Positions 17,736 to 56,587 of a stretch of 64,000 nucleotides of DNA are shown in pieces. The notes below the pieces were generated by a model, which saw only the letters and a list, made by a program, of their open reading frames with translations, had not been told where the DNA came from and searched no databases. The stretch is from a virus, in the IMG/VR virus record IMGVR_UViG_3300020045_010174, positions 678-64,677 of that record; one strand, 5' to 3'. The translations under genes were made by a program, and so were the position numbers. Numbering within the stretch: the stretch's first letter is position 1; each line of letters opens with the position of its first letter.

Positions 17736-17827
17736 GCTTCGGTAATCTAATGGCGAGGTGCTAGTCTAGGTAGGAGTGGGTGGCCTATCGGAAACCTGTT
17801 AAGTGAGTTCGATTCTCACCCGGAGCA
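17736..17827 (+). tRNA. tRNA gene (~92 nt; long variable arm or intron; isotype undetermined)
   Basis: Acceptor 'gcttcgg' / 'ccggagc' (one U-G), D-arm 'atct-aatggcg-aggt', T-arm 'gtgag-ttcgatt-ctcac', discriminator a. Confidence 0.55.
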
Positions 17828-17868
17828 TTTGCCAGATTCGGCAATAGTATTTCAGAGGTGAAATAAAT

Positions 17869-19423: not shown

Positions 19424-19437
19424 CATCAGAGGTGACC

Positions 19438-20628: not shown

Positions 20629-20985
20629 ATGAAAGCGTTGGTAGTAATGGTAGCATTGATAGGTATATTGTTTTGGAATCTACCCGCTACCAACTCATCA
20701 TTTAAAGGACAGCATTCCTTCTACACCGAAGTAGATTGTACCAAGTGTCACTTAGAACAAACCAATTATCTAACCCATACATCAACACTCAACCATACAA
20801 TGACCTGTAAGATATGTCACCCGCAAGATAGAATGTCATCTCACTCAGCAAGGAGAGGATCATGTTATGTTTGTCACTATACTATTCCTTCTGTTGTTCC
20901 TTCTACTGTGCTTGTGGATGCGGGGGTCACCGAAACTCTTACAGTTAATAGCGACCCAATACAAATTCAAACCAGCCCAACTTGA
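20629..20985 (+). CDS. small triheme c-type cytochrome, paralog of the 17869 N-terminus
   Basis: 'LPATNSSFKGQHSF' parallels 'LPATMSLFAGQHSF'. Heme motifs CTKCH, CKICH, CYVCH. Confidence 0.7.
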   Translation: MKALVVMVALIGILFWNLPATNSSFKGQHSFYTEVDCTKCHLEQTNYLTHTSTLNHTMTCKICHPQDRMSSHSARRGSCYVCHYTIPSVVPSTVLVDAGVTETLTVNSDPIQIQTSPT

Positions 20986-21025
20986 AAAGGATACTCGCAA
21001 AGAGGATTGGATCATCTTAATAATA

Positions 21026-21505
21026 ATGATCACCCTCATTATAATACTGGGTGTTAAACTAATAACACTGCAGGTTATAGTATCCGATAGTATGAAGCCC
21101 GAATTCCAACGTGGTGATATCATAGTATCCCAATCAATTGATCTCAATGTTTCAGTTGGGGACATCATCACATTCAATACAATCAGTAGTCAATACGCAG
21201 TCACACATAGAGTTATAGAAATCAGAGATGATAGAATCATAACCCGCGGTGATGCTAATCCCTGGAACGATGACTACTACACCACAAACAAAGATGTAAT
21301 ATTCAAAGCTATAAATCTTTCCGGCCCCATCGTAATTAAAAACCTCGGTGGATTCTTCATAACAGATTACAGTAAGCAGGGAATGATTTATAAGTTTGGA
21401 GACCAGTACACCTTCATGCAAAATCTATCAGCCACAATTAAAGTGTGGGGTAGATTGATTACATTAATAGCAATAGTAATATACATTCTTTCTATGAAGA
21501 GGTGA
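21026..21505 (+). CDS. signal peptidase I, ER/archaeal (Sec11-like) type
   Basis: Box B 'SDSMKPEFQRGDIIV', box C 'GDIITF', box D with His 'THRVIE', box E 'GDANPWNDD'. The six-frame ORF begins at 20867 but would overlap the cytochrome by 118 nt, so the internal ATG at 21026 is preferred. Confidence 0.65.
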   Translation: MITLIIILGVKLITLQVIVSDSMKPEFQRGDIIVSQSIDLNVSVGDIITFNTISSQYAVTHRVIEIRDDRIITRGDANPWNDDYYTTNKDVIFKAINLSGPIVIKNLGGFFITDYSKQGMIYKFGDQYTFMQNLSATIKVWGRLITLIAIVIYILSMKR

Positions 21506-22255: not shown

Positions 22256-22617
22256 TATGATGGAAGATATACTGCAAAGAAGTATTGAGGAAAGAAATCA
22301 TCACACAACTTATCATGTAGTTCATTTGGGTGGGGGTAAGTATGTAATCCTAAATAGATTTTCACCACACTTGAAACCAGGTTGGTGATAACAAACCATT
22401 CCCCGATGTCAAGATTGGGGATGTGGTATAGCGATATAGATATCGTGTAGTAAAATTCGGAGGTAAAAATATGAGCTTAGTAAAACATCTATGGATGGAC
22501 ATCGTTCCACAAACAACACATAAAGCAAGAAAATATATACCATCGTATGAAACAAGACTCAAGAAAGCAGAGGCTAATGTGGCCAGACGAATGGCCAAGG
22601 TTAAGTAAATAGATTTG

Positions 22618-22681
22618 ATGGTGTCAGGTAGACGCGCTGAAACTTTGAGATTACCTGGGTTCAATTCCCGGGCACCATCAT
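22618..22681 (+). other. tRNA-like fragment / truncated tRNA (acceptor + T-arm, no canonical D/anticodon arms)
   Basis: 'atggtgt'...'ctggg-ttcaatt-cccgg'-'gcaccat'-c. Only 28 nt lie between the acceptor and the T-arm, too short for a full tRNA; the internal hairpin is ggta...tacc. Confidence 0.3.
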
Positions 22682-22816
22682 TGTGTGGGAGCCTTGGATT
22701 TCAAATATCCGGGCTCTATTAAAAAGATACGCTCGAGTATATAGGAGTGGTCGCGTGAATCTAATTTTTATGTCCCGCCTTAATAGCAGTCCGCGATGAC
22801 TGCCGTATCTTTTGAA

Positions 22817-22899
22817 GCGAGTATTGCTGAGTGGTCAAAGGCGCGAGACTCAAGATCTCGTCTAGTAGTAGTTCAGGAGTTCGAATCTCCTTACTCGCA
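22817..22899 (+). tRNA. tRNA-Leu(CAA), type II with long variable arm
   Basis: Acceptor 'gcgagta' / 'tactcgc', D-arm 'gct-gagtggtcaaa-ggc', anticodon arm 'cgaga-ctCAAga-tctcg', variable 'tctagtagtagttc', T-arm 'aggag-ttcgaat-ctcct', discriminator a. Confidence 0.65.
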
Positions 22900-22912
22900 T
22901 AGAGGTGATTAC

Positions 22913-23119
22913 ATGGTTAAAGTTGGAGAGGTGTGGGTAAAAGATCCGTGTAAGGAATGGTATTGGGGAGATCATTGTGGTGAACCTGTAATCGTCATGG
23001 GAGTAACGTCCCGTGAAATTTATTATAGATATGTATATATAGATTATAATTATCATTTGGTGGGTATGTTGATGCGAGATGATTTTTTATCTTTCTATAA
23101 ATTGATTAAATCTGTTTAG
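22913..23119 (+). CDS. tandem mini-gene family member A1 (~68 aa, M-V-K-V-G-E-V-W ... Y-R-Y ... KSV)
   Basis: ATG directly after tRNA-Leu, with 'agaggtga' SD; paralogous to the next four ORFs. Confidence 0.6.
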   Translation: MVKVGEVWVKDPCKEWYWGDHCGEPVIVMGVTSREIYYRYVYIDYNYHLVGMLMRDDFLSFYKLIKSV

Positions 23120-23138
23120 ATTATGGAGTGATAATCAT

Positions 23139-23354
23139 ATGGTTCTAGTTGGTCAGATCTGGATGAGAAATCCAAAGATGAAAAATTACTGGGGAGATGA
23201 CGCTGGTAAATTAGTTGTCGTTACTACTCTAACTAATAGCACAGTATATTATAGATATGTGGATTATGAATCCTATGATGAGTTTGTTCACTTCCAGGGG
23301 GCTAGAGAATTAGATGCCTTCATAAAAAGATTCGTATTATATAAAGATGTGTGA
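23139..23354 (+). CDS. tandem mini-gene family member A2
   Basis: 'MVLVGQIWMRNPKMKNYWGDDAGKLVVV...YYRYV...FVLYKDV'. Confidence 0.6.
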   Translation: MVLVGQIWMRNPKMKNYWGDDAGKLVVVTTLTNSTVYYRYVDYESYDEFVHFQGARELDAFIKRFVLYKDV

Positions 23355-23578
23355 GGTATCATATGATTGAACCCGGTCAGATTTGGATGAGAGATCCAGA
23401 GATGAAAATTTATTGGGGAGATGCGGCTGGTAAATTGGTTATCATTATTTCTATACTCGATGACAATATAAGGTATAGATATATATCTTGGTATAATGAT
23501 GAGTCAGATCACCACCACGTGGGGGAGTACAGTAGATTTTCTTTTTTAAGAAAATTTAAATTATATAAAGATGTATGA
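23351..23578 (+). CDS. tandem mini-gene family member A3
   Basis: 'MIEPGQIWMRDPEMKIYWGDAAGKLVII...RYRYI...FKLYKDV'; ATGA overlap with A2. Confidence 0.6.
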   Translation: MRYHMIEPGQIWMRDPEMKIYWGDAAGKLVIIISILDDNIRYRYISWYNDESDHHHVGEYSRFSFLRKFKLYKDV

Positions 23579-23590
23579 GGTGATAATCAT

Positions 23591-23806
23591 ATGGTTAAAG
23601 CAGGGCAGATCTGGGTAAGAGATCCCACGATGGCATATTACTGGGGGGAGGATGTTGGAAAATTAGTCATCATTACCAGTGTATCAACTCATGAGATTAA
23701 TTATAGATATGTTGAACATTCTTGGGAGGATGGATTCAAACATTATATTGGATGCAGACCATTCGATAATTTTCAAAATAGATTTAAATTATATAAAGAT
23801 ATATAA
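23591..23806 (+). CDS. tandem mini-gene family member A4
   Basis: 'MVKAGQIWVRDPTMAYYWGEDVGKLVII...NYRYV...FKLYKDI'. Confidence 0.6.
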   Translation: MVKAGQIWVRDPTMAYYWGEDVGKLVIITSVSTHEINYRYVEHSWEDGFKHYIGCRPFDNFQNRFKLYKDI

Positions 23807-23817
23807 GGTGATATGAC

Positions 23818-24024
23818 ATGGTGAAGGTAGGTGAAGTATGGGAAAAGGTTGATCCAGTGGGGGACTATTGGCAGTATGAGGAATACCCATTAGTAATTGT
23901 TACCAAGGTGACTGAGAATTATGTAAAGTATAGATGTCATGTTACTAATATAGTAGGTCATTATAAAAATATCAGACCACTTAAAGAGTTTGAATCTATG
24001 TTTGCACTACACAAATCCATATAG
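23818..24024 (+). CDS. tandem mini-gene family member A5
   Basis: 'MVKVGEVWEKVDPVGDYWQYEEYPLVIV...KYRCH...FALHKSI'. Confidence 0.55.
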   Translation: MVKVGEVWEKVDPVGDYWQYEEYPLVIVTKVTENYVKYRCHVTNIVGHYKNIRPLKEFESMFALHKSI

Positions 24025-24475
24025 GAGAGAGTATGATAGAACAACTACCAACCAGAAGGGAAATGTTTTTAATAGCCATCGCAATAATACTATACCTGAC
24101 CACAGCTTATACAATGATTGAACCCACTGAGTCTCTTCAAGTGGATGAGGAAATAATATATCTTATTAACCCAAGTGACTATGATGGTATTATTATCAGG
24201 GCACTACCACCCACCTCATACTTGGATGAAGAGAATGTCCTCCGAAGATATGGGAGATGAATATGTGGGGTTGAATACCTATGGTCTCGATACTATAATA
24301 ACCCTCCTCTGGACACATAAAAATAGTACCATAGAGTTATCTTGCTTCGAGGCAAGCAATCCCGATTAAAAGTTACCCCTGTGTAACAGCAGGTTTAACC
24401 GGTGGGATAAAGATACTACGCGCAAAACCTAATCAATACCCCCAAGTCCCACCGTCTTATTTATGAGGTGATAAT

Positions 24476-24946
24476 ATGAAAGTAAGTAAAATAACATTTG
24501 CTATGATTATAATTGCTATAAATATAGCACTATTAATTGCAATAGTATCAACGGATATTGGTGTCAAATCATCCACCACATTATATTATATCAACGACTC
24601 AGATCGACATACTGCAGATTATATCTTAGGGAATACTTATGCAATACATGATGAAAATTTGAGGATGGTTGATACATCGATGACACCATCGATGATTCCA
24701 ACTATTCAACCCGGGCAAAATGTATTGGTAAGTAATAATGTATCTAATATAAATTTGGGTGACATTGTTATTTATAAATATGATGAGAACTTTGCTGCAT
24801 TCCCAACGTCCTATAATTTAATTATACATAGAATCATCTTTATAAATGAAACGCACTTCATAGCGATGGGTGATAATAATTCAATCGATGATGGACTTTA
24901 TCCAAGAAGCGCATTGAAAAGTGTGGTGGTTGCAATTTTATTTTGA
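24476..24946 (+). CDS. second signal peptidase I paralog (ER/archaeal type), N-terminal TM anchor
   Basis: Box B 'DTSMTPSMIPTIQPGQNVLV', box C 'GDIVIYKY', box D 'IIHRIIF' (His), box E 'MGDNNSIDDGLY'. Confidence 0.6.
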   Translation: MKVSKITFAMIIIAINIALLIAIVSTDIGVKSSTTLYYINDSDRHTADYILGNTYAIHDENLRMVDTSMTPSMIPTIQPGQNVLVSNNVSNINLGDIVIYKYDENFAAFPTSYNLIIHRIIFINETHFIAMGDNNSIDDGLYPRSALKSVVVAILF

Positions 24947-25090
24947 GGTGATAACATGAGAATAGAATTATTTGGTAAAGAAGTTGTGGATACATACATG
25001 TCTAATACAGAAGGAGAGTGTGTGGTTATTCTAGGAGTTGTTATCTTTTTAATAATGATGATAGCTCCACTTTGGAAATGGTGGTGAACT

Positions 25091-25537
25091 GTGGTCTTAG
25101 ATATTTTGGTGGGGAAAAAGATAGAAAGAATATTTTTCAATGAATCATATCTTAAATTCCAAACCGATTCGGGATCATTTGTTTTTTATGTAGATGGTGA
25201 TTGCTGCTCACGTTCTATATTTTATGACTTCATTGGTGTTAAAAAATTATTAGAGAATGGAAGAGTGGTATCCATAGATAGTATTGCACTCGATCCAGAT
25301 GATATAAGAGAGAATGAGGATGGGGAAATGCAAGATAAAAAAAGAAGTGATGAAGCTATTAAAGTATACGGTTACAGAATTGTAACGGAAGATCCCACAT
25401 TCGGTCTACTCAGTTCTGTATTTTCATTCCGTAATTATTCTAATGGATACTATGGAGGAAGTCTGGAAGACAATGGTGGAGACAGAGATGTTCAACCGGA
25501 AATATTTGATGATGTTTTTGAGACAGTAAGTGAATAA
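25091..25537 (+). CDS. hypothetical protein (148 aa)
   Basis: ORF; acidic C-terminal half. Confidence 0.45.
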   Translation: MVLDILVGKKIERIFFNESYLKFQTDSGSFVFYVDGDCCSRSIFYDFIGVKKLLENGRVVSIDSIALDPDDIRENEDGEMQDKKRSDEAIKVYGYRIVTEDPTFGLLSSVFSFRNYSNGYYGGSLEDNGGDRDVQPEIFDDVFETVSE

Positions 25538-25917
25538 AAATAATACGAGGTAAAATATGGATAAAAATAACTGTGCATTTGGTCAAGCAATACTTGGTGG
25601 GGACACCATTAAGTTCCCTGTATGTAAAGGCGATTGTCCTGATGACTGTAAATATCATGTGGCTCCAGTAACATTATCATCTAAGAAGGCACGTAAACAA
25701 AACATTATCAAGTGAGGTGATTCGATGGAATTTAGAATGATGATAGCGAGGACATATATGCTTTTCCTTGGGCTACTGATGTTGATATTATATTTTACTT
25801 CAACACTTCCCGACCCCACCCTTACAATACGTTTCAAAATAATATGGGGAGTAATAACTTCAATAGGAACTTCATTCTGTTGGAGTACAGCTATAACATA
25901 AATGGAGGTGAATTGTT

Positions 25918-26187
25918 ATGACTTTATGCGACTGGTATAATGATGTAATGAATTGGATGGATGTGGTGGGAAATAAATTAACAGATGATGATTCCCACCG
26001 CAGAGAAAATGTGAAAGAAATAAATATATTATTAATTCCAATTCATATAGTGGGGTATTTTATATTAGCCTCCATCCTAGTATTAATTATATTGGGTGGT
26101 AGGTGGATTTTAAAATTCTCCACATCAAAGGAAAGTGATGCACACAGAGAAAAATATTTTCAGAGACGGGTGGATTACGATCTATGA
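25918..26187 (+). CDS. small TM hypothetical protein
   Basis: ORF with one strongly hydrophobic helix. Confidence 0.4.
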   Translation: MTLCDWYNDVMNWMDVVGNKLTDDDSHRRENVKEINILLIPIHIVGYFILASILVLIILGGRWILKFSTSKESDAHREKYFQRRVDYDL

Positions 26188-28110
26188 CAGAATCAATCCA
26201 ATTCACTTGTAAAAAATGTGGGCGAGGATATCAATCTCTCCCACAATGTGCCTGTGAGATATGCGGGAATACGATTTTTATTGCGGAGAAAAGAAAAAGT
26301 TTACAGTTAATATAAGAGGTGAAACTATGGCAAGAGCAAATCAAAAATTTAAATCACATAAAAATAAACATGAGATACTTGAAACGAAAAGAAAATCACA
26401 CGGAGGCAAGCCCATCAAAGTTAAAGCGGAGATAGTGGTATGAAGTACATAGCCCGGGCAGGTTCATATGAGGATGGGAATATAATCACCATCCCAGACG
26501 GTTCAATTGGAGTCACCACATTAAAAACTGCATATGAGGGATGCTTATGTGTAACGTGGCTTGAGCCATACGAGAAATGAAACATGAAGCTTATAACGAA
26601 AGAAGAGATAAATGATTACGAGGTGGAGATCGGCCCCGGTGATACTGTTCCCCTATCCACATTAGTACATAAGATGCAAGAACGCATTAGGGCAACAGCA
26701 TTTGAAGTTGATCTCTGGAGAAAATAATGAAAAGATATTGCTTGAAAGATGGAACTATCTTCGATGATGATCCTGCTCGTGAAGGTGGGGAACGATTCAA
26801 GTGTCCAACATGCGCATTAAGAAAAGAAATGCAAGAAGAGATACAGAATCTTAAAGATGAGATTCTTTCTCTTACAATACGTCTCGGAGATATTAAGAGG
26901 TGAAACTATGGTACTTACATACTATGAAGTCTTAAAACGAATTGATGAAATTTTAGTTGCGATCGAGGGGGAAGTGGCAGTTGATCCATACGAATTGATC
27001 CAAGAACTTAGAAATGATATGGTGGCATGATTATGTTTCAAGTCTTAATAGGATGTAATCTTACCAAAGGACATGTGGATCCAAACGCTGGTATGTTCGG
27101 GGTATTACACGAGGGATCATTCCCAAATCTAATACGACATTCTCCTATACTTGCAAGAGATAATACTGAGTGTCATGATAGGAGAACTAACAAATGCAGC
27201 TCCAATTGCAGACATTCAGTCTATGCTATCGCCGGAACAAAACTTTCATTCAGAAATACGGGGGCTCGGATATGAAATTTTCACACATTCTTGGGGGTAT
27301 ATTATGTCATATCATACCACCTACTGCTCTTGTTTTATTATATCTCCATCTGGTTTTACCATATGTGCGTAATGGAAATGATATATTCGCAGCAATACTT
27401 GTTGGGTTAATTGCTTGGATAGTATTATACTTTTCATTTGGTAATACGTGGGGAGAGATAATAGAAGTATATATGAGAGATGATAAGTAATGGATCTCAT
27501 AACCAATCTTATCAATGGAGGATTATTGATACTTTCCTTCATGGCAATAATAATAAATCGAAATAAAAACAGAGATGCGGCGATCTGGGCAACGGTTGCT
27601 TTTCTATCAGTCATACGATTATTATGAAGCTAATTAATTTAAGTGATCAAAGAATATGGGTTGAATTCCAAGGAGAAGATTTTACACAGGATGCAGAAAT
27701 GATTCCCCCCGGTAAAACTATCGAGATCCCAGAAGATTGTGGGGAAATAATAGTGAGGTGAATAGAATGTTTCAAGATGAACGCTCTGTAATTGGAGGTA
27801 TAGTTCATTCACCAGAGATATATATTATGGATCGGATATGTATAAATTGTGGAAAACGATACGGTAATCATTTTGGTGAAATGTGTTGGGAAGAATTTAT
27901 TAAGTTGAAAAGAAGTCCCACACCAACTGTTCCTGTACCCCTGTATTCCCCAACCCAGTGAAGCAACCACATTAAAAGCTGGGGAAGAAACTCGGATCAG
28001 ATCAGCAGGAATGTGTTGATATAAAGGGGTAAGAGAATAAGACACAACATAAATCTGGGGGTACATTGCCCGGGTTAGGGAGTCCCGGGCTTATATTTTA
28101 GGAGGATACT

Positions 28111-28296
28111 ATGTCAGATTATATTGAGGTGGGTGAGATATGGGAAATGAGTGCGGGTGGAAAGTTGATTGGGGTAGTATGTCGTGTCACACACCATGAA
28201 GTTAAATTGAGATTCTCAATGAGTGGGGGACATAGTATGCATAGTGTTTCTATACCTGCATTAAAATCCTGTTATAAGAAGGTATCATATGATTGA
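28111..28296 (+). CDS. tandem mini-gene family member B1
   Basis: 'MSDYIEVGEIWEM...KLRF...KKVSYD'; SD 'taggagga'. Confidence 0.6.
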   Translation: MSDYIEVGEIWEMSAGGKLIGVVCRVTHHEVKLRFSMSGGHSMHSVSIPALKSCYKKVSYD

Positions 28297-28492
28297 GATT
28301 GGAAGTATATGGGAACTGTTTGGTAGAAATCCAACTAACTCCGTCATTGTAATTGTTATATATACAACACCAGAAACTGTTTTTATCAGATTTTTATATA
28401 ATCATGCTGGTGCTATTAGACCCGGGCACGTTACCGCAATGGAATGTATGGATATGTTTTTAAAATACTACCGAGAGGTGACATATGATTGA
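28289..28492 (+). CDS. tandem mini-gene family member B2
   Basis: 'MIEIGSIWELF...VIVIVIYT...FIRFLY...YREVTYD'; 8-nt overlap with B1. Confidence 0.6.
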   Translation: MIEIGSIWELFGRNPTNSVIVIVIYTTPETVFIRFLYNHAGAIRPGHVTAMECMDMFLKYYREVTYD

Positions 28493-28688
28493 AGTTGGTA
28501 GTATGTGGATGTTGGGGAATGGTGTAATCAGCACACCCATGATTGTAATTGTTACTAATGTAACTAACGAATCCATTCATTTTAGATTTTTATATACTAC
28601 CAATTATCATAATGAACCCAGGCATTATATGGCAAGTGAATCTAAGAATGTATTTCTAAGATTTTATAAAGAGGTGACATATGATTAA
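28485..28688 (+). CDS. tandem mini-gene family member B3
   Basis: 'MIEVGSMWML...IVIVTNV...HFRFLY...YKEVTYD'. Confidence 0.6.
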   Translation: MIEVGSMWMLGNGVISTPMIVIVTNVTNESIHFRFLYTTNYHNEPRHYMASESKNVFLRFYKEVTYD

Positions 28689-28866
28689 GATTGGTAGTGT
28701 ATGGGAACTTCCCAATTGGAATCCTCCCCTTTCATTAATAGTAATTGTTACCAACGTTGATAGAGAATACGTTTCAATTAGATATTTATATGATTCACAA
28801 GGTCATTATTCCGGTCGTGAGGAAATGAATAGGTTTTTAAAATATTATGTGGAGTTGATATATTGA
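28681..28866 (+). CDS. tandem mini-gene family member B4
   Basis: 'MIKIGSVWELP...IVIVTNV...SIRYLY'. Confidence 0.6.
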   Translation: MIKIGSVWELPNWNPPLSLIVIVTNVDREYVSIRYLYDSQGHYSGREEMNRFLKYYVELIY

Positions 28867-29243
28867 CACCGGAAGAAGAGAGAACTCTTGCATTAAGAAT
28901 ATTAAATGATCTTCTCGAGTTCAAAGGATTCGTGAGATCAATTAATATTAATTTTAAAACCAATTTATTTTTTAATTTTGAGTGGTGTTATTGGATAGAA
29001 TATTCCAGCAGATCAACTCGAGATATTAAAATCTTTACCCATTATAAAACAAATCGATTGGGATTTGTAAATAAATTTATAGAATCTTATAGTGATGCCA
29101 TACTTAGTTTAAAAAACGAGATTAGACCAACGTGTTCTATAGAACCACAATATGCAGAAATGCTTAAAGATGTTCATACTGATTCCCTTTTTGTTGCCAT
29201 ACCAAATTTAGATGAACCATTAATATGTGACTACCGAAGTTAG
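28863..29243 (+). CDS. hypothetical protein (126 aa) interrupting the B arrays
   Basis: ORF overlapping the B4 stop. Confidence 0.45.
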   Translation: MTPEEERTLALRILNDLLEFKGFVRSININFKTNLFFNFEWCYWIEYSSRSTRDIKIFTHYKTNRLGFVNKFIESYSDAILSLKNEIRPTCSIEPQYAEMLKDVHTDSLFVAIPNLDEPLICDYRS

Positions 29244-29424
29244 AATAAGATGTAGGAGGTAAATATCATGTGTATAAAATATAATGGAAGTAAACACCCA
29301 TCGTTATTTGCATGGTATTTTTTTAATCATACCTCCAGATTAGCCAGAGATAGCGGTATTAAATTATTGATGCGAGTAAGTAAATACAAATTTGAATTCA
29401 ACTTTACTGTTGAAAAGGTGAAGT

Positions 29425-29628
29425 ATGATTAAGGTGGGGGATTTGTATAGGAAGAGTGGATCCAGATGGACAGATGATAAAGATGATATTGTAGTTATTG
29501 CAGAAGTTTCAGGTGACTGGTTAAGATATCGTTATATTACTTCGGGAGATGATTCCTATCATTCTCATAGTGGACGTTGGTCATTCGAAGGATTTAATAG
29601 AGAATTTACGAAGGTGACATATGATTAG
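29425..29628 (+). CDS. tandem mini-gene family member B5
   Basis: 'MIKVGDLYRK...IVVIAEV...RYRYI...FTKVTYD'. Confidence 0.6.
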   Translation: MIKVGDLYRKSGSRWTDDKDDIVVIAEVSGDWLRYRYITSGDDSYHSHSGRWSFEGFNREFTKVTYD

Positions 29629-29824
29629 GGTTGGAGATATCTATCAAAAGGTTGGGAAAGGTAGGTGGGGTGATGAAGAGAATGATTTAGTGGTCATTGT
29701 ATGGTCCACACCTTTACAAATAAGATATCGTTATATTGATAGGGCATCACATGATCATCAACTAAGTTCTAGCTGGGATCTCAAATCATTCGATAGATGG
29801 TTTAGAGGGGTGAAATGTGATTAA
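29621..29824 (+). CDS. tandem mini-gene family member B6
   Basis: 'MIRVGDIYQK...LVVIVW...RYRYI...FRGVKCD'. Confidence 0.6.
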   Translation: MIRVGDIYQKVGKGRWGDEENDLVVIVWSTPLQIRYRYIDRASHDHQLSSSWDLKSFDRWFRGVKCD

Positions 29825-30017
29825 AATTGGTAGTATCTGGGAGAGAGTATTAACACTCGACAGAAATATACACGTGGGAGATATTGCAATTGTCACGGAT
29901 ATAGTTGGTAATGATATCAAATATCGATTTATGGTACATGAAGGTAATAGACATTTAAATTTCCAAAGATCCCATGAAGAGTTTTTAAATATTTTCAGAG
30001 AGGTGAAGTATGATTGA
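29817..30017 (+). CDS. tandem mini-gene family member B7
   Basis: 'MIKIGSIWERV...IAIVTDI...KYRFM...FREVKYD'. Confidence 0.6.
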   Translation: MIKIGSIWERVLTLDRNIHVGDIAIVTDIVGNDIKYRFMVHEGNRHLNFQRSHEEFLNIFREVKYD

Positions 30018-30207
30018 ACCTGGTAGTGTATGGGAAAGATCGGTTTTTATAGGAGGAATTCCAGCAGGTAGTTTAGTTATAGTTGAGAGGGTTAATAGTA
30101 GAGAGGTTCAATATAGATTTGTAGATGCCGAAGACAACAATCATTCTTATTACAGTAGACATGTTAGCGATTTCCAGAAAAATTTTAAGGAAGTGAAACA
30201 TGTATAA
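30010..30207 (+). CDS. tandem mini-gene family member B8
   Basis: 'MIEPGSVWERS...LVIVERV...QYRFV...FKEVKHV'. Confidence 0.6.
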   Translation: MIEPGSVWERSVFIGGIPAGSLVIVERVNSREVQYRFVDAEDNNHSYYSRHVSDFQKNFKEVKHV

Positions 30208-30388
30208 AGTAGGTGATGTATTAAAACGAGTTGGACCTCTCTGGGATTCGAGATGGTTGGGTGCATTTGTAATAGTAATTTTTATTGATGAAGAATATAT
30301 GTTGTATAGATATCCTTCACATGCTATATCAAAGCATTCTTCTGGTCATGTATCCAAAGAAGACTTTGATTCATTTTCATATCCATAG
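30200..30388 (+). CDS. tandem mini-gene family member B9
   Basis: 'MYKVGDVLKRV...FVIVIFI...LYRYP'. Confidence 0.55.
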   Translation: MYKVGDVLKRVGPLWDSRWLGAFVIVIFIDEEYMLYRYPSHAISKHSSGHVSKEDFDSFSYP

Positions 30389-30398
30389 GATAATATTT

Positions 30399-30608
30399 AT
30401 GACGATTAAAGTTGGTCAAGTATGGCGCCGAGTAGGAGAAGCATGGTCTATATATTATAAAGAAAAACCCGTTGTTATTATACAGGTATCTCGTATCGGA
30501 GTTAAGTATAGATATACAGATCAACATGAACAAGAGCATGTTGATGGTGAAATATTATCATTCAGTAGATTTGAAGATATTTTTAGATTGTGGAAGGATG
30601 TGGATTGA
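30399..30608 (+). CDS. tandem mini-gene family member B10
   Basis: 'MTIKVGQVWRRV...VVIIQV...KYRYT...FRLWKDVD'; internal ATG of the six-frame ORF 30285-30608. Confidence 0.55.
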   Translation: MTIKVGQVWRRVGEAWSIYYKEKPVVIIQVSRIGVKYRYTDQHEQEHVDGEILSFSRFEDIFRLWKDVD

Positions 30609-30817
30609 TGACGGTTGAAGTTGGACAAGTATGGGTGAGATATGGAGATACCTGGCTACCAGATGATCGTGAGAATCCAGTCATTATTATAAGCGCGACT
30701 ATTCTTGGAATTGTATATAGATATTTAGATATGTATGAAGAAGAACATGCTTGTAGTAGTGAGTGGCCAATAGAACAATTTGAAGAATCTTTTAAATTAT
30801 ATAAGGATGTGAAATAA
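30608..30817 (+). CDS. tandem mini-gene family member B11
   Basis: 'MTVEVGQVWVRY...VIIISA...VYRYL...FKLYKDVK'; ATGA overlap with B10. Confidence 0.55.
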   Translation: MTVEVGQVWVRYGDTWLPDDRENPVIIISATILGIVYRYLDMYEEEHACSSEWPIEQFEESFKLYKDVK

Positions 30818-31048
30818 TGAAAGGTGAAATAAGTATGGGTCACGGAGATAGATTGGTTCTATCCAATGAAGATGGTGTCCGAATGTTAGAAATCCAGAAG
30901 ATGGGTAAATTATTTTACATCAACCCAATTCCAAATTGTGTAATGGAATCACCCAGTGAAGATTGTGGATCAACAACCATAGGTACAAGAAAGAGGAAAT
31001 CATCATGTCTGAAAAAATTCATAACTATAGAATAATTGTGGAGAGAGA

Positions 31049-31561
31049 ATGTCAAATAAAATAAAGAAAGCAGAGTCATTAGCTCGCTTTGTACATGAAG
31101 GTCAGAAGAGAGGAGACGGAGAAAATTATATTAAACATTGCGAACGAGTAGTAGACGAGACAAGAAAATATATATATAGTCATTTCGAAAGTAAAGAACA
31201 ATCGGAAAATCTTATTTGTGCAGCATGGCTTCATGATTGTATCGAGGATGCAGATCTCAAACTTGAAATGAATGACTTTATATTGAAAGCATTTGGTTAT
31301 GATATATGGGATATAGTTGCAACACTGACACATGATCCTAAACTTGAATCTTATAATCAATATATCGAGGGAGTATTCAAACACCCCACAGCATGGCAAA
31401 TCAAGTGGCTTGATATGATAGATAACACATCATACAAGACCACAAAGAAACAAATTATTAAATACAAAGATGCCTGCACACACTTAATGATTCATGGGGT
31501 TACTGTGCCCCCAATCCTAATAGAACGATTAGGACTTTCAGAATCATCAATTGATGAATAA
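31049..31561 (+). CDS. HD-domain phosphohydrolase, RelA/SpoT-type (p)ppGpp hydrolase-like (small alarmone hydrolase / Mesh1-like)
   Basis: 'ARFVHEGQKRGDGENYIKHCERV' (H...GxxRxxGxxYxxH) followed by 'AAWLHDCIEDADL' (HD...ED), the signature arrangement of the SpoT hydrolase HD domain. Confidence 0.6.
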   Translation: MSNKIKKAESLARFVHEGQKRGDGENYIKHCERVVDETRKYIYSHFESKEQSENLICAAWLHDCIEDADLKLEMNDFILKAFGYDIWDIVATLTHDPKLESYNQYIEGVFKHPTAWQIKWLDMIDNTSYKTTKKQIIKYKDACTHLMIHGVTVPPILIERLGLSESSIDE

Positions 31562-31574
31562 AAGAGGTTTAAAT

Positions 31575-32471
31575 ATGAGTAATGAAAAAATCGACAAAGG
31601 AATCTTCTTCGATATAGATTCTTATGGAGATATAACAAAAATGCACTACGAGAGGATAGTAACGACAGTGATATTAGTATTATTACTTTCGTCAATGATC
31701 TTGGGTGGAATCTATCGTATCAATACAGGTGAAGGTGCTATCCTCACCGGAGCAAGTGGAGTAAAAGAACCTATCACAAAAGTAGGATGGGGTTTAAAAG
31801 TCCCAGTATTTTCAAGCATTGAAATCAAAACTGTTGTGAATAGAAACATTTACTTCCCATCGGACTATGTTGCATTGGAAGCTAATTTTAAAAGTGATTC
31901 GCAGACCGGCGCAATAGGTATCGATATCAAAACAACGGATGATAAAGTTGTAGACACTGGCGCAGTAATGACATATTCAATCACCGATCTATATCAATAT
32001 GGTGTAATGAATGCATACCCAGAAGAACAATTACAAAAAGCATTCGATGCAGCAGTGTTTAATCATCTGCAGACACTCGATTCAAACAAGATCACCAGTG
32101 AAATTTCCACAGTAAATGCTGAATTATTAACTAAAATAAAAGCATCAAACCTGGAACAGCAGTATGGTATTGTAGTGACATCAGTCCAATTACTGAGGCC
32201 AACATTCACCAAGGAAGCACTTAGTGGATTATCACAGAAACAGGCGATCCAAGCAATAGCAGAAGGTAAACTCAATGCAGCCAAATCCGAAGCCTTAGCC
32301 ATCGAAACTATAGCAATGGCTACTAAGAATCAGGCAGATACATTGGCTGGTATTAGTGACGAGCGGTTAGCATACACTGCCAAGATGACTCTATACAATA
32401 ATCTGAAAGGCCAGACAAATGTAATATGGGTTATCCCAGACAACGTGAACTTAAATCTAGTTGCAAAGTGA
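31575..32471 (+). CDS. SPFH/band-7 (stomatin/prohibitin-like) membrane protein
   Basis: N-terminal TM 'IVTTVILVLLLSSMILGGI', then an SPFH-like core and a coiled-coil 'QAIQAIAEGKLNAAKSEALAIETIAMA'. The ATG at 31575 has an 'agagg' SD; the upstream ATG at 31551 overlaps the previous gene. Confidence 0.55.
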   Translation: MSNEKIDKGIFFDIDSYGDITKMHYERIVTTVILVLLLSSMILGGIYRINTGEGAILTGASGVKEPITKVGWGLKVPVFSSIEIKTVVNRNIYFPSDYVALEANFKSDSQTGAIGIDIKTTDDKVVDTGAVMTYSITDLYQYGVMNAYPEEQLQKAFDAAVFNHLQTLDSNKITSEISTVNAELLTKIKASNLEQQYGIVVTSVQLLRPTFTKEALSGLSQKQAIQAIAEGKLNAAKSEALAIETIAMATKNQADTLAGISDERLAYTAKMTLYNNLKGQTNVIWVIPDNVNLNLVAK

Positions 32472-32503: not shown

Positions 32504-32695
32504 ATGGAAATTGGTTCAATTGTAAAAATTAAAGATAATGCTGGGACATATGGAGAAGCACTCGGAGCAATTGGTATATGTACACGTATAGAATATATTG
32601 CAAGAATTAAAACTATTCTAATATATGTAAGGATTCCGGGTAGGTTATCACACACGGGTGTAATGTTACTTGAGACGGAGGTAGACTTAATATGA
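32504..32695 (+). CDS. small protein distantly resembling the tandem mini-gene family
   Basis: 'MEIGSIVKIKD...GAIGICTRIEYI...'. Confidence 0.35.
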   Translation: MEIGSIVKIKDNAGTYGEALGAIGICTRIEYIARIKTILIYVRIPGRLSHTGVMLLETEVDLI

Positions 32696-33585
32696 TAGAT
32701 ACAACTATAGGTAGCGATCCAGAATTCATGATTATAGATTCTAATGGGGAAATATTACCAGCAGTTAAAATTTTATCGGGATGTGATGATTGCAATCCTT
32801 GTGATACATGTAGTAAAACACGCGACGAGGATGCGTGTGTTCGTGGATGTGGTGGGGATTGTGATGTATGTCATATGTGTAGCAGTGAACCAGGAAATTG
32901 CGATTCATGCTATGAATGTCAGGAACCTCTGGAACATTCGGAAGTTGGTATAGATGGGAACAGTACAGTTGGAGAACTTCGACCGATTTATTCATTTGAT
33001 CCTATAATGCATCATGCAGCCATCAAATCATTGATTCGACATATTAATCTTCCAAAAGAATATAAATTATTGGGAGGTACAGTACAATGTGGATTTAAAC
33101 TGGGAGGACATATTCATATAGGTTATAATGAATCTGGTATTGATAATGATCATTTCGCAAAATATCTTTCATACTATTGTGGGATACCCCTCAAGAGAAT
33201 AGAGAATCCAGACGATATTGAATGTCGTGGTAAATACGAGGAGACATATGGATACTACGGTTCTTATCATGATACTGATTATGGTATAGAATTTAGAATG
33301 CCTGCATCATGGTTAGTTGATTCTACCATTGCAAAAGCAGCATTGTGTTTAGCTAAGGTGGTAGCATATGAATATCTCAATGTGGATTCATCAGCTGATG
33401 TTGACTTATCTCATGATGAGTATGTGGAATTACTTGATGCTAGAAACATAGATGATATCATAGAAGAAATAAAAGATATGGAAGAATTTTCTAAATATGC
33501 TAATGAAATAAATCCCCTGCTTACAATGATTGAGAATCATCAAACATGGGATACAGATAAAAACATACGGGAGAACTGGAAATGA
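32692..33585 (+). CDS. Amidoligase_2-family (glutamine-synthetase-like) amidoligase paralog 1, with Cys-rich N-terminal insert
   Basis: 'IGSDPEFMII' N-terminal motif and 'LGGHIHIGY' / 'YGIEFRMPASW' core, shared with the ORFs at 39834 and 42237. A 60-aa insert carries ~16 Cys ('CDDCNPCDTCSK...CGGDCDVCHMCSSEPGNCDSCYECQEP'). Confidence 0.6.
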   Translation: MIDTTIGSDPEFMIIDSNGEILPAVKILSGCDDCNPCDTCSKTRDEDACVRGCGGDCDVCHMCSSEPGNCDSCYECQEPLEHSEVGIDGNSTVGELRPIYSFDPIMHHAAIKSLIRHINLPKEYKLLGGTVQCGFKLGGHIHIGYNESGIDNDHFAKYLSYYCGIPLKRIENPDDIECRGKYEETYGYYGSYHDTDYGIEFRMPASWLVDSTIAKAALCLAKVVAYEYLNVDSSADVDLSHDEYVELLDARNIDDIIEEIKDMEEFSKYANEINPLLTMIENHQTWDTDKNIRENWK

Positions 33586-34041: not shown

Positions 34042-34410
34042 ATGACCAAAAAACAAAAAGAAAGGACGTGGAAAAATCCAGAAGAACCTCCACACAACGT
34101 TTATTATTTTATTGATCATCTTGATCCCCAGAAGAGATTGAGAGTGTGGGGAGGACAACACATGAATGATGTAATTGAGTCATTGAAGCCCTCAAATTAT
34201 TTAACCGAGTTTGTTCGGTTCATGAAAGGCTGCGACAGCCTTAGCCGATGTTATCCACTCCATGAAGAATTGGGTCATGTTGACGAGATTCGACTTGAAT
34301 TTTGGTCACGATATCAAACAAAAGTTAAGACAGTAATAAAACCAATGATCAAAAGAATGATAAAGGACGAGATAAAGAAGGATTTGGAGAGGATGAAATT
34401 TTATGAGTGA
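34042..34410 (+). CDS. hypothetical protein (122 aa)
   Basis: ORF with 'gaggtga' SD. Confidence 0.45.
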   Translation: MTKKQKERTWKNPEEPPHNVYYFIDHLDPQKRLRVWGGQHMNDVIESLKPSNYLTEFVRFMKGCDSLSRCYPLHEELGHVDEIRLEFWSRYQTKVKTVIKPMIKRMIKDEIKKDLERMKFYE

Positions 34411-34828
34411 TGAAGTTTTTACTCAAATAATTTTTCCTCCACTCCCCAAAGTAATTTATAATCAAACGCCTTTGGCAAACCAACGGTTTGATATCAATAA
34501 CAAACCAATGAAGTCAGAAATTCCAACGTACAACGTTCCACCAGATAAACCATATTGGTTTGAATTTTATCCCGACAGATCGGATTTTATGTGTAAGTGT
34601 CCTGCATGTAATTTGGTATATTGTTATAGTTCAATGCGACCCGATACGGATCCTGATGCATTGATGAAGACAGTCCTTGCTTTAAAATCGTATTATAATC
34701 AGGAATTTGAATGGTTCTGCCCCAATAAAAAAGATCATGAAGTAATATCATTCAATGATCGAAGGAAGGCGAACGAAGGATACGAGGAATATTCCGAAGA
34801 ATACTGGTCGGAGTTCATGATGAGGTAA
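34403..34828 (+). CDS. 'FTQIIFPP'-tagged Zn-ribbon protein 1 (candidate substrate / precursor of the ligase locus)
   Basis: 'MSDEVFTQIIFPPLPK...' then a variable body with 'CKCPACNLVYCY...FCPNKKDH'. Confidence 0.55.
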   Translation: MSDEVFTQIIFPPLPKVIYNQTPLANQRFDINNKPMKSEIPTYNVPPDKPYWFEFYPDRSDFMCKCPACNLVYCYSSMRPDTDPDALMKTVLALKSYYNQEFEWFCPNKKDHEVISFNDRRKANEGYEEYSEEYWSEFMMR

Positions 34829-34830
34829 GT

Positions 34831-35124
34831 ATGGATAATGTATTTACTCAGATAATATTCCCACCCAAACCAAGACAAGAACTCGTTATAAAATCAAGCG
34901 GTGATAAAGATATAGATTATTGGGTTGTTGCAGAAGAATCGCATAAGGCATTATATGTTCAATGTCCCATCTGCTATACTTCGTTTAGATTGGCAATGGT
35001 TATGAATGAGGCAGCATTGAAAGAATATATAAATAGATATCCTGATATGTATTACAATGCGGCAATCAGAGAATGCCCGGAAAAAGATAAGCATGGACAA
35101 CAAGTCTGGCACACGGTGATATGA
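34831..35124 (+). CDS. 'FTQIIFPP'-tagged Zn-ribbon protein 2
   Basis: 'MDNVFTQIIFPPKPRQ...QCPICYTSF...ECPEKDKH'. Confidence 0.55.
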   Translation: MDNVFTQIIFPPKPRQELVIKSSGDKDIDYWVVAEESHKALYVQCPICYTSFRLAMVMNEAALKEYINRYPDMYYNAAIRECPEKDKHGQQVWHTVI

Positions 35125-35125
35125 A

Positions 35126-35443
35126 ATGGAAACTTTTACTCAGATAATATTTCCACAGAAGAAAAAAGATACTCCATTACTAATGAAACCCGCGGGATCT
35201 ACAGATGGAAAACAATTCATATTTTGGTTTAAGGATGTATTGGATTATAATACTAAGGAAGAAGAATCATTCGTTATGGTAAAATGTCCAGAATGTAATT
35301 TTATCTACGAGTTTATTAAAATAGATCCCAGACAAAAAGAATTGATAAATGAAAATCTCCACACAAATCTATCCTACTATAAAATACGTGCAATAAGCGG
35401 TTGCCCAAGATGTAAAGGAAATTATAATTCGGGGTATGCATGA
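35126..35443 (+). CDS. 'FTQIIFPP'-tagged Zn-ribbon protein 3
   Basis: 'METFTQIIFPQKKKD...KCPECNFIY...GCPRCKG'. Confidence 0.55.
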   Translation: METFTQIIFPQKKKDTPLLMKPAGSTDGKQFIFWFKDVLDYNTKEEESFVMVKCPECNFIYEFIKIDPRQKELINENLHTNLSYYKIRAISGCPRCKGNYNSGYA

Positions 35444-36526: not shown

Positions 36527-36892
36527 GTGATACATATGTTTGAAAAAGGAGACGTGGTTAAATATATTGGTGATAGCCAGCGATGGAAAAATAAAGAATT
36601 TACAATAGTAAATGATCCCGTTCAACGTGATCGTAGTGTACTTCATTGTATACGAAATAATATGACATATTTTAGGATATTTACTACAGATCAAGTGGAG
36701 AAAGTAGAATCAATTCCTAAATTTCAAACGGGAACTATTGTTGATGTTAAAACTTTAATTTACAATGATCCAAATAGAATTGGTATTATTAAATTATCAA
36801 ATCATTTGGGATCAATTGTTAGATATCCACTCGGTGGATTCGCTCATAGAGAAGATTATATTCCAAATAGTAGGCTGAGGTTATCAAAATAA
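36527..36892 (+). CDS. tandem-duplicated SH3/KOW-like small-barrel protein (two G-x-V-V/I-x-V repeats)
   Basis: 'FEKGDVVKYIGDS...' and 'FQTGTIVDVKTLIYND...' internal repeat. Confidence 0.35.
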   Translation: MIHMFEKGDVVKYIGDSQRWKNKEFTIVNDPVQRDRSVLHCIRNNMTYFRIFTTDQVEKVESIPKFQTGTIVDVKTLIYNDPNRIGIIKLSNHLGSIVRYPLGGFAHREDYIPNSRLRLSK

Positions 36893-43547: not shown

Positions 43548-43915
43548 AACATAAATCAATACGGTACTTTTTGTCGAAGACTATCTCAGATAGATCTTCT
43601 TCATTTTCTATAGAGAATAGAAATGGAGGAAAATGGTTATGCTATATGGAGAGGCATTCTATAATTGCAGATATGCAAATCAGCAAAAAAAGCTTCAATT
43701 CCTTGATGCGATTCACAAGTGGAGTCACCTGTCAAGAATGTATACATGATGATTGTGATGATTTAGCAGATGAAGTTGAGGAAGCTTTGATAGATATGGT
43801 ATCAAAACATAATAAGAAGCATGGTAGAAAAATGCATACATCTTTCGTTAATGAGCCTCAACCTAAAAGAGAAATGAATCCTTTCGTTGTACAAATATTT
43901 GATCCATCATTATGA
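43544..43915 (+). CDS. hypothetical Cys-containing protein
   Basis: 'CQECIHDDCDD'. Confidence 0.4.
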   Translation: MKHKSIRYFLSKTISDRSSSFSIENRNGGKWLCYMERHSIIADMQISKKSFNSLMRFTSGVTCQECIHDDCDDLADEVEEALIDMVSKHNKKHGRKMHTSFVNEPQPKREMNPFVVQIFDPSL

Positions 43916-44094
43916 AAAATAAAGGAGATGTTATAGAATTTCGTATAAGTGACTTATTCTGGAAAATAGGAATTATTATAGATACAGAAACTTTTCGCGA
44001 AGGATTTGTATATACAATAAGATATCCAGGTGAATATATACACAAACATTTACATATTACTCTTGATGAGATATATACTCGTGATTTAATATGA
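43912..44094 (+). CDS. degenerate member of the tandem mini-gene family
   Basis: 'MKNKGDVIEF...IGIIIDTE...VYTIRYP'. Confidence 0.4.
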   Translation: MKNKGDVIEFRISDLFWKIGIIIDTETFREGFVYTIRYPGEYIHKHLHITLDEIYTRDLI

Positions 44095-44820: not shown

Positions 44821-45015
44821 ATGACATTAAAGGTAGGGGATATTTTACATACCCGATCCCATATAAATAATTTTTATGTGGGTATATTTCTGGGAAAAAT
44901 ACGTGATTATTATACGGTGCGATACTTTGTCGAGGGTGATACAACCGGACATTCGACTACCAGATACACCTCTTTAAATGAAATGTATGGCTCATGGGAG
45001 GATTACGAGATATGA
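44821..45015 (+). CDS. tandem mini-gene family member C1
   Basis: 'MTLKVGDILHT...YYTVRYF...'; SD 'aaggaggtaaa'. Confidence 0.55.
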   Translation: MTLKVGDILHTRSHINNFYVGIFLGKIRDYYTVRYFVEGDTTGHSTTRYTSLNEMYGSWEDYEI

Positions 45016-45200
45016 AACCAGGAACCATCTTATTTACCAAACCGAGTATAAATTATTTATATGCGGCAATATATGAAGGTATAAATAATGATTATGGATA
45101 CTACGCAGTGAGATATACCGGTGGAATATCCCCTATACCTCAGCATACTGTTGTTCATTATAAAACATTAACTGAGTTATTTGAAGTATGGGGGAGATAA
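45012..45200 (+). CDS. tandem mini-gene family member C2
   Basis: 'MKPGTILFTKP...YYAVRYT...'; ATGA overlap. Confidence 0.55.
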   Translation: MKPGTILFTKPSINYLYAAIYEGINNDYGYYAVRYTGGISPIPQHTVVHYKTLTELFEVWGR

Positions 45201-45202
45201 TT

Positions 45203-45373
45203 ATGGAGTTAGGTGATATATTAACTTATCGAACAGCTTTACTTATAGGAGTTTATGCTGGTATACGAAGAGGTGATAAAAAGCACATTGTTAGGTGGAT
45301 TAATAAGGATCATCATTCAGATGCTTCATATGAAGATATGGATGAAATATTTTTCTTCTGGGAAAAAATATGA
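45203..45373 (+). CDS. tandem mini-gene family member C3
   Basis: 'MELGDILTYR...HIVRWI...'. Confidence 0.5.
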   Translation: MELGDILTYRTALLIGVYAGIRRGDKKHIVRWINKDHHSDASYEDMDEIFFFWEKI

Positions 45374-45543
45374 CAATTAAAATAGGGGATGTAATTACAC
45401 ATACAAGTCATCTGGGTATCGTGGGTATATACATCGGTAAAGTTAATGGTTTATTACAGGTGAGGACTATTGATACAAGCACTCATAAATCATATGTTTA
45501 TGAGGAAAAAGATCAACTTGAGTATTTTTGGAGGCATTTTTAA
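45370..45543 (+). CDS. tandem mini-gene family member C4 (57 aa, not in ORF track)
   Basis: 'MTIKIGDVITH...LLQVRTI...LEYFWRHF'; ATGA overlap with C3. Confidence 0.5.
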   Translation: MTIKIGDVITHTSHLGIVGIYIGKVNGLLQVRTIDTSTHKSYVYEEKDQLEYFWRHF

Positions 45544-54697: not shown

Positions 54698-54700
54698 AAT

Positions 54701-56586: not shown

Positions 56587-56587
56587 T

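Follow-up and report, generated by a model that had tools for sequence, protein, structure and literature searches.

Tandem mini-genes of a probable archaeal tailed virus encode a diversified family of small proteins with a predicted SH3-like fold

The DNA considered here is a 64,000-nucleotide stretch (the window) of the IMG/VR virus record IMGVR_UViG_3300020045_010174, covering positions 678 to 64,677 of that record, and the element in question is array B, a dense cluster of mini-genes between window positions 28111 and 30817. An earlier note on this DNA had described eleven such genes there in two runs of four and seven, and all of them were confirmed: eleven intact open reading frames (ORFs) of 61-69 amino acids (aa) lie on the plus strand in 28111-28866 (run B1) and 29425-30817 (run B2) (Table 1). 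When a profile built from the window was searched against its six-frame translation, each copy was recovered with an expectation value (E) between 1e-17 and 1e-25, as against about 0.02 for the best unrelated segment; the minus strand of the array holds a few ORFs of 40-86 aa, without any family signal in this profile search. At seven of the nine within-run junctions, consecutive genes overlap by exactly 8 nucleotides (nt), reading ATGATTGA, ATGATTAA or ATGATTAG. This is the case for all three junctions of run B1 and for the first four of the six in run B2, while the 8-nt start/stop overlaps reported earlier do not extend to the last two, where the genes are separated by a gap of 10 nt (30388/30399) and overlap by 1 nt (30608), respectively. 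As the unit length is 3n+1 nt, successive genes step regularly through the three reading frames.

The overlaps are coded twice. In the upstream frame, GAG GTG ACA TAT GAT TGA is read E V T Y D stop, and the downstream frame opens with ATG ATT GAx (M I E). More generally, the upstream gene ends in GAG GTG Axx TAT GAT TGA, in which TAT GAT holds the next ATG, and codons 2-3 of the downstream gene (ATT GAx, ATT AAx or ATT AGx) hold the stop of the previous one. GAGGTGA is complementary to the 3′ end of 16S rRNA, and is therefore read as the ribosome-binding site of the next gene; every gene in array B has a purine-rich GAGGTG, GGTGA or AGGAGG box 5-10 nt ahead of its start, and in the operon layout the GAGGTGA-type boxes stand 3-6 nt before the ATG. 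To judge from this arrangement, the C-terminal (E/K)V(T/K)YD and the N-terminal MI(E/K/R) of the proteins are largely imposed by the overlap. Relatives with a shorter ATGA overlap end in ...EV(L/V/I), retaining only the GAGGT box, and in array A, a second cluster of the family with short spacers between its genes, the GGTGA box sits outside the upstream gene. The strict C-terminal motif, which most copies had been said to carry, is found in only four of the eleven, with two near-variants (KVSYD and GVKCD). A central (R/K)(Y/F)R(Y/F) motif, also put forward in the earlier note, is strict in four copies out of eleven as well; what is truly invariant is its arginine, within x-[YFIL]-R-[YF]. A caution of wider use follows from these junctions, namely that a "conserved C-terminal motif" in tandem small genes may be a trace left by the ribosome-binding site and start codon of the gene that follows, and not a feature of the protein.

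With its seven 8-nt overlaps, its single 1-nt overlap and its ribosome-binding sites placed inside the upstream genes, array B has the layout of a translationally coupled operon, and related viruses keep separate ORFs with 4-nt (ATGA) or 8-nt overlaps. Each run is probably co-transcribed and its genes are probably coupled in translation, the latter having been proposed earlier from the tight packing. The two runs are separated by a 126-aa gene and a 54-aa ORF. The former has no Pfam match and is 44% identical (E 3e-36) to a gene in the same relative position on a contig of a related virus (L001:1450-1842). The latter gave neither a family profile hit nor a Pfam match; read from its sequence, it carries the junction module though it is not a detectable family member. 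Just ahead of run B1 stands a palindromic hairpin, next to which come a T-rich stretch, AGGAGG and the first ATG of the run. This weak feature was not called by a terminator scan with bacterial signals, and possibly marks a transcript boundary.

Protein identity between the window copies is 10-53% (median 26%), and Tandem Repeats Finder detected no array with a gene period of about 200 nt in 22500-31200; recent DNA repeats would not have diverged this far. An Rfam scan of the window returned tRNAs only. The proportion of synonymous differences (pS) reaches saturation at 0.44-0.73, so the Nei-Gojobori ratios of nonsynonymous to synonymous substitution rates (dN/dS) are rough values; they lie at 0.14-0.43 in 11 of 12 orthologous or paralogous pairs, and at 0.77 in the apparently recent pair 30399/30608. 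All 16 frames of the family in the window are intact, each copy having its own start, stop and ribosome-binding site, and the +1 frame step, regular at every 8-nt overlap, is unlike what a decayed long gene would leave. That the family members are real, selected protein genes is practically certain, and the independent translation claimed for them from the outset is supported by their intact frames and signals, by dN/dS below 1 and by a self-contained predicted fold. The opposite possibility is that of chance ORFs or, as the earlier note had raised against itself, of remnants of a degraded repetitive structural gene: it can point to the repetitive appearance and to the decayed copies that exist in relatives, and is next to impossible given sixteen intact frames of 61-71 codons in DNA of 36% G+C, the regular frame step, the signals of every copy, the dN/dS values, the separate-ORF organisation kept in five other contigs and a model with a predicted local distance difference test (pLDDT) score of 95.

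This model was obtained with AlphaFold2 for the 29621 copy, using an alignment of the 17 in-window sequences only (pLDDT 94.9; predicted template modelling score, pTM, 0.81). It has strands at residues 7-10, 23-29, 33-40, 45-48 and 61-63 and a helix at 54-60, which gives a predicted SH3-like barrel of five strands with the C-terminal helix closing it. Structure comparison agrees with the SH3-like beta-barrel class, that is, a five-stranded bent antiparallel barrel of about 60 residues. In an alignment of 68 sequences (window copies and relatives), Gly5 and Arg37 are invariant, followed by His46 (96%), Phe57 (93%) and Trp8 (88%), and Trp16, Tyr36, Tyr/Phe38, Phe61 and a hydrophobic second strand are likewise conserved. 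The loop between strands 1 and 2 (9-22), the loop between strands 3 and 4 (40-45) and positions 47-56 are highly variable, in length as well. Among the conserved residues, Trp8, Trp16, Tyr36, Tyr/Phe38 and Phe57 are aromatic, the feature that defines Tudor readers being an aromatic cage for methylated lysine or arginine. The family proteins are 61-71 aa long, with an isoelectric point (pI) of 4.3-7.9 and 8-18% aromatic residues. No cysteine is conserved in the 68-sequence alignment, and no hydrophobic leader or membrane segment was seen in the family translations. The neutral-to-acidic pI and the lack of conserved cysteines speak against both Sso7d-like, non-specific binding to nucleic acids and a zinc site. 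The family has neither the strongly basic character of the SH3-like DNA binders Sso7d/Cren7, nor the N-terminal helix followed by five strands and the Sm1/Sm2 motifs of Sm/Hfq proteins.

Array B is not the only place where the family is found in the window. Array A, which starts directly after a tRNA-Leu gene, has five members of 68-71 aa separated by spacers of 8-19 nt, each with a GGTGA box. By profile, the robust family thus numbers 16 copies (5 + 4 + 7), about 3.2 kb or 5.0% of the window. Further downstream, array C consists of four tandem ORFs of 57-64 aa, to which a solitary 60-aa ORF of the same type can be added. These five ORFs have the family's layout and its Gly/Arg/His triad, and on that account are possible remote relatives. 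An initial assignment of array C to the family at E 1e-14 was discarded as circular, the profile seed having contained ORF 44821: with this sequence left out, none of the five ORFs matches (E of 1 or more), and the hhalign probability between array C and the family falls from 96% to 9%. Counting them would bring the family to 21 copies and 6.4% of the window. Of the at least 21 copies announced in the earlier note, 16 therefore stand and the other five fail a non-circular profile test; its estimate of about 8% of the window was too high by either count, and its reading of an unusually large investment in one small fold is upheld.

Where else do such proteins occur? An exhaustive search of 1.84 billion representative proteins gave 77 HMMER hits at E ≤ 0.001, among which 12 window copies, six long proteins and about 60 other small proteins (55-124 aa) were retrieved. 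The long proteins were rejected as spurious, five being immunoglobulin-repeat-like with piecemeal matches and one (371 aa) having no Pfam match. The small ones are all metagenomic and none is cellular, their names going no further than "hypothetical protein", and their contigs belong to relatives of the window virus. A word-indexed protein search with family alignments returned little beyond the source contig, a DNA pattern spanning two junctions had no match in IMG/VR, and 40 loci from IMG/VR and JGI metagenomes, reached through the HD-domain gene that follows array B, had no family member. Arrays B and A are syntenic with contigs L001 and L006, respectively, and copy number differs between them, array A having three copies in L006. 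Beside the HD gene, there are 11 copies in the window, six intact and one decayed in L001, about four intact and two decayed in L053, and none in L022. The decayed copies, namely L001:2961-3131 (without N-terminus or start codon), L053:9632-9802 (truncated) and L053:10192-10388 (frameshifted), sit within otherwise intact arrays. As a side observation, a 136-aa ORF of L022 (6974-7384), whose C-terminal half reads MKVGSTIFINGYVVIITEIKGDIFKYRG, looks family-like by eye, and this ORF and a 121-aa ORF of the window (36527-36892) each apparently have two SH3-like KxGD... modules; both may be fused distant relatives, which the profile does not detect.

In a neighbour-joining tree, positional orthologues pair across viruses at 52-58% identity (23139/L006_10001, 23818/L006_10459, 30010/L005_2098 and 29425/L005_1520), and the positional orthologues of run B2 in L005 and L001 are 40-57% identical. 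The same tree has lineage-specific duplicates (28289/28485/28681, 30399/30608, 29425/29621 and 23139/23591), and in run B1 three of the four genes seem to stem from a lineage-specific triplication, their type having only one copy in each of L001 and L005. Old orthologous sub-types, lineage-specific duplicates and pseudogenes are the marks of birth-and-death evolution, and on its sequences the family is an accessory family of this sort, not a recent amplification.

Known families and systems offer little by way of a name. Pfam and NCBIfam gave nothing significant for the family (noise only in NCBIfam), PHROG 8021, whose function is unannotated, matches two copies (1.8e-5), a megablast search of the region against GenBank phages found no match, and a sequence-profile search of the PDB returned only non-significant hits to PsaE and L21e. 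At the level of structure, the best matches in BFVD are small, mostly uncharacterised phage proteins, with template modelling (TM) scores of 0.6-0.75 and E of about 0.01-0.1. Those from Bacillus phages Mater and AR9, Salmonella phage 7-11 and Klebsiella phage KP8 are likewise viral barrel-plus-helix proteins of 53-75 aa, but they have no significant sequence similarity to the family, no characterised function for any named match, and none is reported as a 16-copy tandem family. The SH3-like barrels of the PDB, including FeoA, the ferredoxin-docking NdhS/PsaE, NusG KOW, Tudor, and the RNA-polymerase binders PcrA/UvrD C-terminal domain and CarD, match in fold class, with 2-17% identity and no functional motif in common, so that these matches give a fold class and not a function. 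A ferredoxin-docking role, suggested by NdhS/PsaE and by the cytochromes of the virus, was rejected on this ground.

Multicopy expansions are well known from virus-host conflict, as in the genomic accordions of poxviruses and giant viruses, and paralogous families of the anti-CRISPR AcrID1 occur in Sulfolobales viruses. Multicopy gene families are also known in the Borg elements of Methanoperedens (PMC12660748). The present family resembles all of these expansions in its local duplication, its copy number varying among relatives, its fast paralogue divergence and its lineage-specific expansion; it differs in its 65-aa unit, in its setting in a tailed virus of about 74 kb, in the age of its copies and in their tight predicted coupling. 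The sequence family is undescribed and very rare, whereas its fold is common and local viral multigene expansions are a known phenomenon.

Taken as a whole, the data are best explained, though only tentatively, by a co-expressed set of diversified binders forming a birth-and-death family. Each run would be one transcript, along which ribosomes would terminate and re-initiate across the overlaps; the paralogues would be made together and in similar amounts, and copy number would change through unequal recombination between copies. The proteins would act as a binder set in the host cytoplasm, with one binding chemistry for all, that of the Arg/His/aromatic face of the strand 3-strand 4 hairpin, and with loops setting the differing specificity of the paralogues. 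They would serve the virus against its host, in anti-defence or in host takeover and regulation; this role in virus-host conflict is plausible without being probable. The contrast between invariant residues and variable loops supports the binder explanation, as does the confinement of the family to one virus clade.

Several points weigh against it. That Arg37 and His46 share one face of the strand 3-strand 4 hairpin is expected from the strand register of the secondary structure only, and the invariant Arg/His pair could equally mean a single common ligand. The rough dN/dS values, with dS saturated, have no sign of positive selection. PADLOC found no match to defence-system proteins, the anti-defence class not having been searched directly. 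That the region holds early genes is an assumption based on its location, with the structural module on one side and the replication module on the other, and the host, probably a Methanoperedens-like (methane-cycling) archaeon, is itself assigned indirectly. The most ambitious form of the binder explanation is a germline "binder library" with a fixed Arg/His/aromatic centre and diversified loops, the sub-types of which would neutralise different variants of host defence or signalling, for example by soaking up different nucleotide immune signals or inhibiting different defence effectors. Unequal recombination at the conserved ribosome-binding-site/start/stop junction would let the library grow and shrink. 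Such a library is improbable on present evidence; if true, it would be a new family of anti-defence proteins and, on a compact viral scale, a counterpart to the multigene families of host-parasite arms races.

Alternatively, the proteins could be small regulators or nucleic-acid-associated proteins, either as a remote branch of DUF4222 or as RNA-polymerase-binding Tudor-like proteins in the manner of CarD or the PcrA/UvrD C-terminal domain, each paralogue redirecting host or viral transcription. This is unlikely. DUF4222 (PF13973) is the only recurrent Pfam signal of the family, weak and seen in 11 of 69 members (best E 0.01), but all scores stay at or below 14.7 bits (the best window copy, E 0.023) against a gathering score of 27 bits. 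Compared profile against profile, as the earlier note had suggested, the 68-sequence family and 120 relatives of the DUF4222 protein RgdR gave a weak link (hhalign P 1.6e-4, probability 50%, 41 columns; effective number of sequences, Neff, of the template 1.7), the aligned parts being the second strand, the Y-R motif and the F..F.LV helix. RgdR (ECs1581), from prophage Sp7/OI-51 of E. coli O157:H7 Sakai, regulates host genes as a prophage-encoded activator of host type III secretion (PMC10877973), and, as a small prophage protein of possibly related sequence, sets a precedent for action on host regulation. Both families are small and virus- or prophage-encoded, with the same order of an N-terminal G-D-I-Y/W strand, a hydrophobic strand 2, Y-R in strand 3 and the C-terminal helix. 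On the other hand, RgdR is a single-copy protein of 99 aa that has a basic tail and lacks His46, and DUF4222 is enterobacterial, whereas the window family is massively multiplied in a probable archaeal virus clade. The link is a lead to a remote relationship, not membership. In addition, the pI range is unlike that of non-specific nucleic-acid binders, and sixteen regulators would be many for a 74-kb genome.

Less credible still is simple dosage amplification, in which redundant copies would act, for example, as a sponge for one host molecule, as in a genomic accordion. The core and the Gly/Arg/His residues are invariant or nearly so in all copies, copy number differs among relatives, and poxviruses, giant viruses and Borg elements provide precedents. 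Amplifications give near-identical copies, however, and here the copies are far apart in sequence, with no detectable DNA repeat; moreover, several sub-types are kept as positional orthologues across viruses, which speaks against copies that could stand in for one another.

Operons that encode stoichiometric complexes typically consist of overlapping genes with internal ribosome-binding sites, and SH3-like barrels such as Sm/Hfq form rings. Run B2, with its seven coupled or near-coupled genes, might accordingly recall the seven Sm paralogues of a ring, and coupling would then yield equimolar subunits of one hetero-oligomer. The odds are poor for this proposal as well: copy number and order differ among relatives (11, 7 and 6 beside the same HD gene, 5 versus 3 in array A), which is hard to square with a fixed stoichiometry, decayed copies are tolerated, and the helix is C-terminal instead of N-terminal as in Sm/Hfq, of which neither Pfam nor the PDB gave a match.

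Within 2-13 kb downstream of array B, the virus has three phiEco32-like COOH-NH2 ligase type 2 genes and one for a RimK-like ATP-grasp enzyme, a sizeable toolkit for peptide or amide ligation that is conserved in L001, L050 and L053. That the mini-proteins are substrates or tags whose C-termini are modified or conjugated by these enzymes is very improbable: in L001 and L053 the arrays have a ligase gene a few kb downstream of them, L050 has one too, and many copies end in an acidic residue, but the C-termini vary (YD, KDV, KHV, SYP, LIY), the YD ending is accounted for by the overlapping start codon, the adjacency reflects the shared synteny of one virus clade and not independent co-occurrence, and no ubiquitin-like or Pup-like feature is present.

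The virus behind the window has a genome of about 74 kb (74.5 kb), with 36% G+C and tailed-virus hallmark genes. It encodes a family B DNA polymerase, a D5-like primase-helicase, an anaerobic ribonucleotide reductase and an RNA ligase; the polymerase is nearest to those of haloarchaeal tailed viruses, at 26% identity, and there is no close phage relative in GenBank. The larger of its two multiheme c-type cytochromes is 72% and 63% identical to genes on contigs of metagenome-assembled genomes (MAGs) of a Methanobacteriota archaeon and a Euryarchaeota archaeon (L051 and L052, one of 240 kb), with which the neighbouring genes are syntenic over window positions 17.8-21.8 kb. Cytochromes and polymerase alike speak for an archaeal host of the Methanoperedens type, which possibly carries integrated relatives. 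Methanoperedens viruses of 71-94 kb and 34% G+C, with multiheme cytochromes and, in those of 71 kb and 94 kb, stand-alone Cas4-like genes, are described in a preprint (bioRxiv 10.1101/2023.08.02.551345). They are matched here in size, base composition, tailed-virus genes, two multiheme cytochromes and a Cas4-like nuclease, and the sections of the preprint that were consulted do not mention the small-protein family. In view of a probable archaeal host, promoter and terminator scans with bacterial signals, which stayed at background level, are uninformative.

Other features of the window stand apart from the family. An unrelated second family of tandem paralogues, with three ORFs of 141, 97 and 105 aa in 34403-35443, has a common N-terminus (D/E)(V/T)FTQIIFPP.PK and CPxC...CP zinc-ribbon-like motifs, its first member having no Pfam match. 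Small cysteine-rich ORFs (46-97 aa) with many CxxC pairs are densely packed in 54300-57300, around a 309-aa gene (55657-56586) and upstream of the primase-helicase gene; these ORFs possibly encode zinc-ribbon proteins. As for tRNAs, Rfam called 17384-17477, ARAGORN a 94-nt tRNA-Thr at 17735-17828, and both tools tRNA-Leu at 22817-22899; there may be three tRNA genes, some of unusual length or with introns.

Table 1. Features of the window and of related contigs; coordinates of the array B genes include the stop codon
Feature	Position	Strand	Remarks
Palindromic hairpin CCCGGG-N9-CCCGGG	28069..28099	+	read from sequence
Run B1	28111..28866	+	four genes, 61-67 aa; hidden Markov model (HMM) E 1e-17 to 1e-22
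Run B1 gene	28111-28296	+	
Run B1 gene	28289-28492	+	
Run B1 gene	28485-28688	+	
Run B1 gene	28681-28866	+	
126-aa gene between the runs	28863..29243	+	TTG start overlapping stop of 28681-28866
54-aa ORF ending EKVKYD	29268..29432	+	overlaps first run B2 gene by 8 nt
Run B2	29425..30817	+	seven genes, 62-69 aa; profile search, junction reading
Run B2 gene	29425-29628	+	
Run B2 gene	29621-29824	+	
Run B2 gene	29817-30017	+	GTG start
Run B2 gene	30010-30207	+	
Run B2 gene	30200-30388	+	
Run B2 gene	30399-30608	+	
Run B2 gene	30608-30817	+	
Array A	22913-24024	+	five genes
Array A gene	22913-23119	+	profile hit
Array A gene	23139-23354	+	profile hit
Array A gene	23363-23578	+	profile hit
Array A gene	23591-23806	+	profile hit
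Array A gene	23818-24024	+	profile hit
Array C	44821..45543	+	four ORFs
Array C ORF	44821-45015	+	possible remote relative
Array C ORF	45009-45200	+	possible remote relative
Array C ORF	45203-45373	+	possible remote relative
Array C ORF	45370-45543	+	possible remote relative
Solitary 60-aa ORF, array C type	43912..44094	+	32% identity in alignment with array C
Portal protein	5-2416	minus	
Terminase	2807-4384	minus	
Papain-family cysteine protease	7972-8781		
Multiheme c-type cytochrome	17869-18993		374 aa
Second multiheme c-type cytochrome	19408-19893		
Two S24/S26-type peptidase-like proteins	20867-21505, 24476-24946		flanking array A
HD_4 (RelA/SpoT-type hydrolase-like) and SPFH/Band 7 proteins	31049-32471		directly downstream of array B
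COOH-NH2 ligase type 2 genes and RimK-like ATP-grasp gene	32692-33585, 39834-41486, 42237-43547, 37581-38312		
Cas4-like PD-(D/E)xK nuclease	44091-44819		PDDEXK_1 E 2e-19, Cas_Cas4 E 5e-8; directly upstream of array C
L001	14 kb		syntenic with array B: copy, 126-aa-gene orthologue, copy, 86-aa gene, three copies, startless copy, copy, then 73-aa gene, HD-domain gene (63% identity), Band 7 gene
L005			at least 7 tandem copies
L049			at least 5 tandem copies
L006			syntenic with array A; 3 copies versus 5
L053	from 89.7-kb contig		upstream of HD gene: about four intact, one truncated, one frameshifted; plus divergent dispersed copies
L050			three dispersed copies
L022			HD protein 60% identical; no family member by profile

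The viruses that infect methane-oxidising and related archaea have hardly been studied, and the majority of their genes lack annotation. Occupying 5-6% of the genome, and combining purifying selection and a variable copy number with a confident predicted fold, this family is among the few tractable entry points to them: such tiny, soluble proteins can easily be produced, and the invariant arginine and the histidine are obvious residues to mutate. If the proteins bind components of host defence or regulation, they would form a new anti-defence or takeover family, and would point to the host systems that matter.

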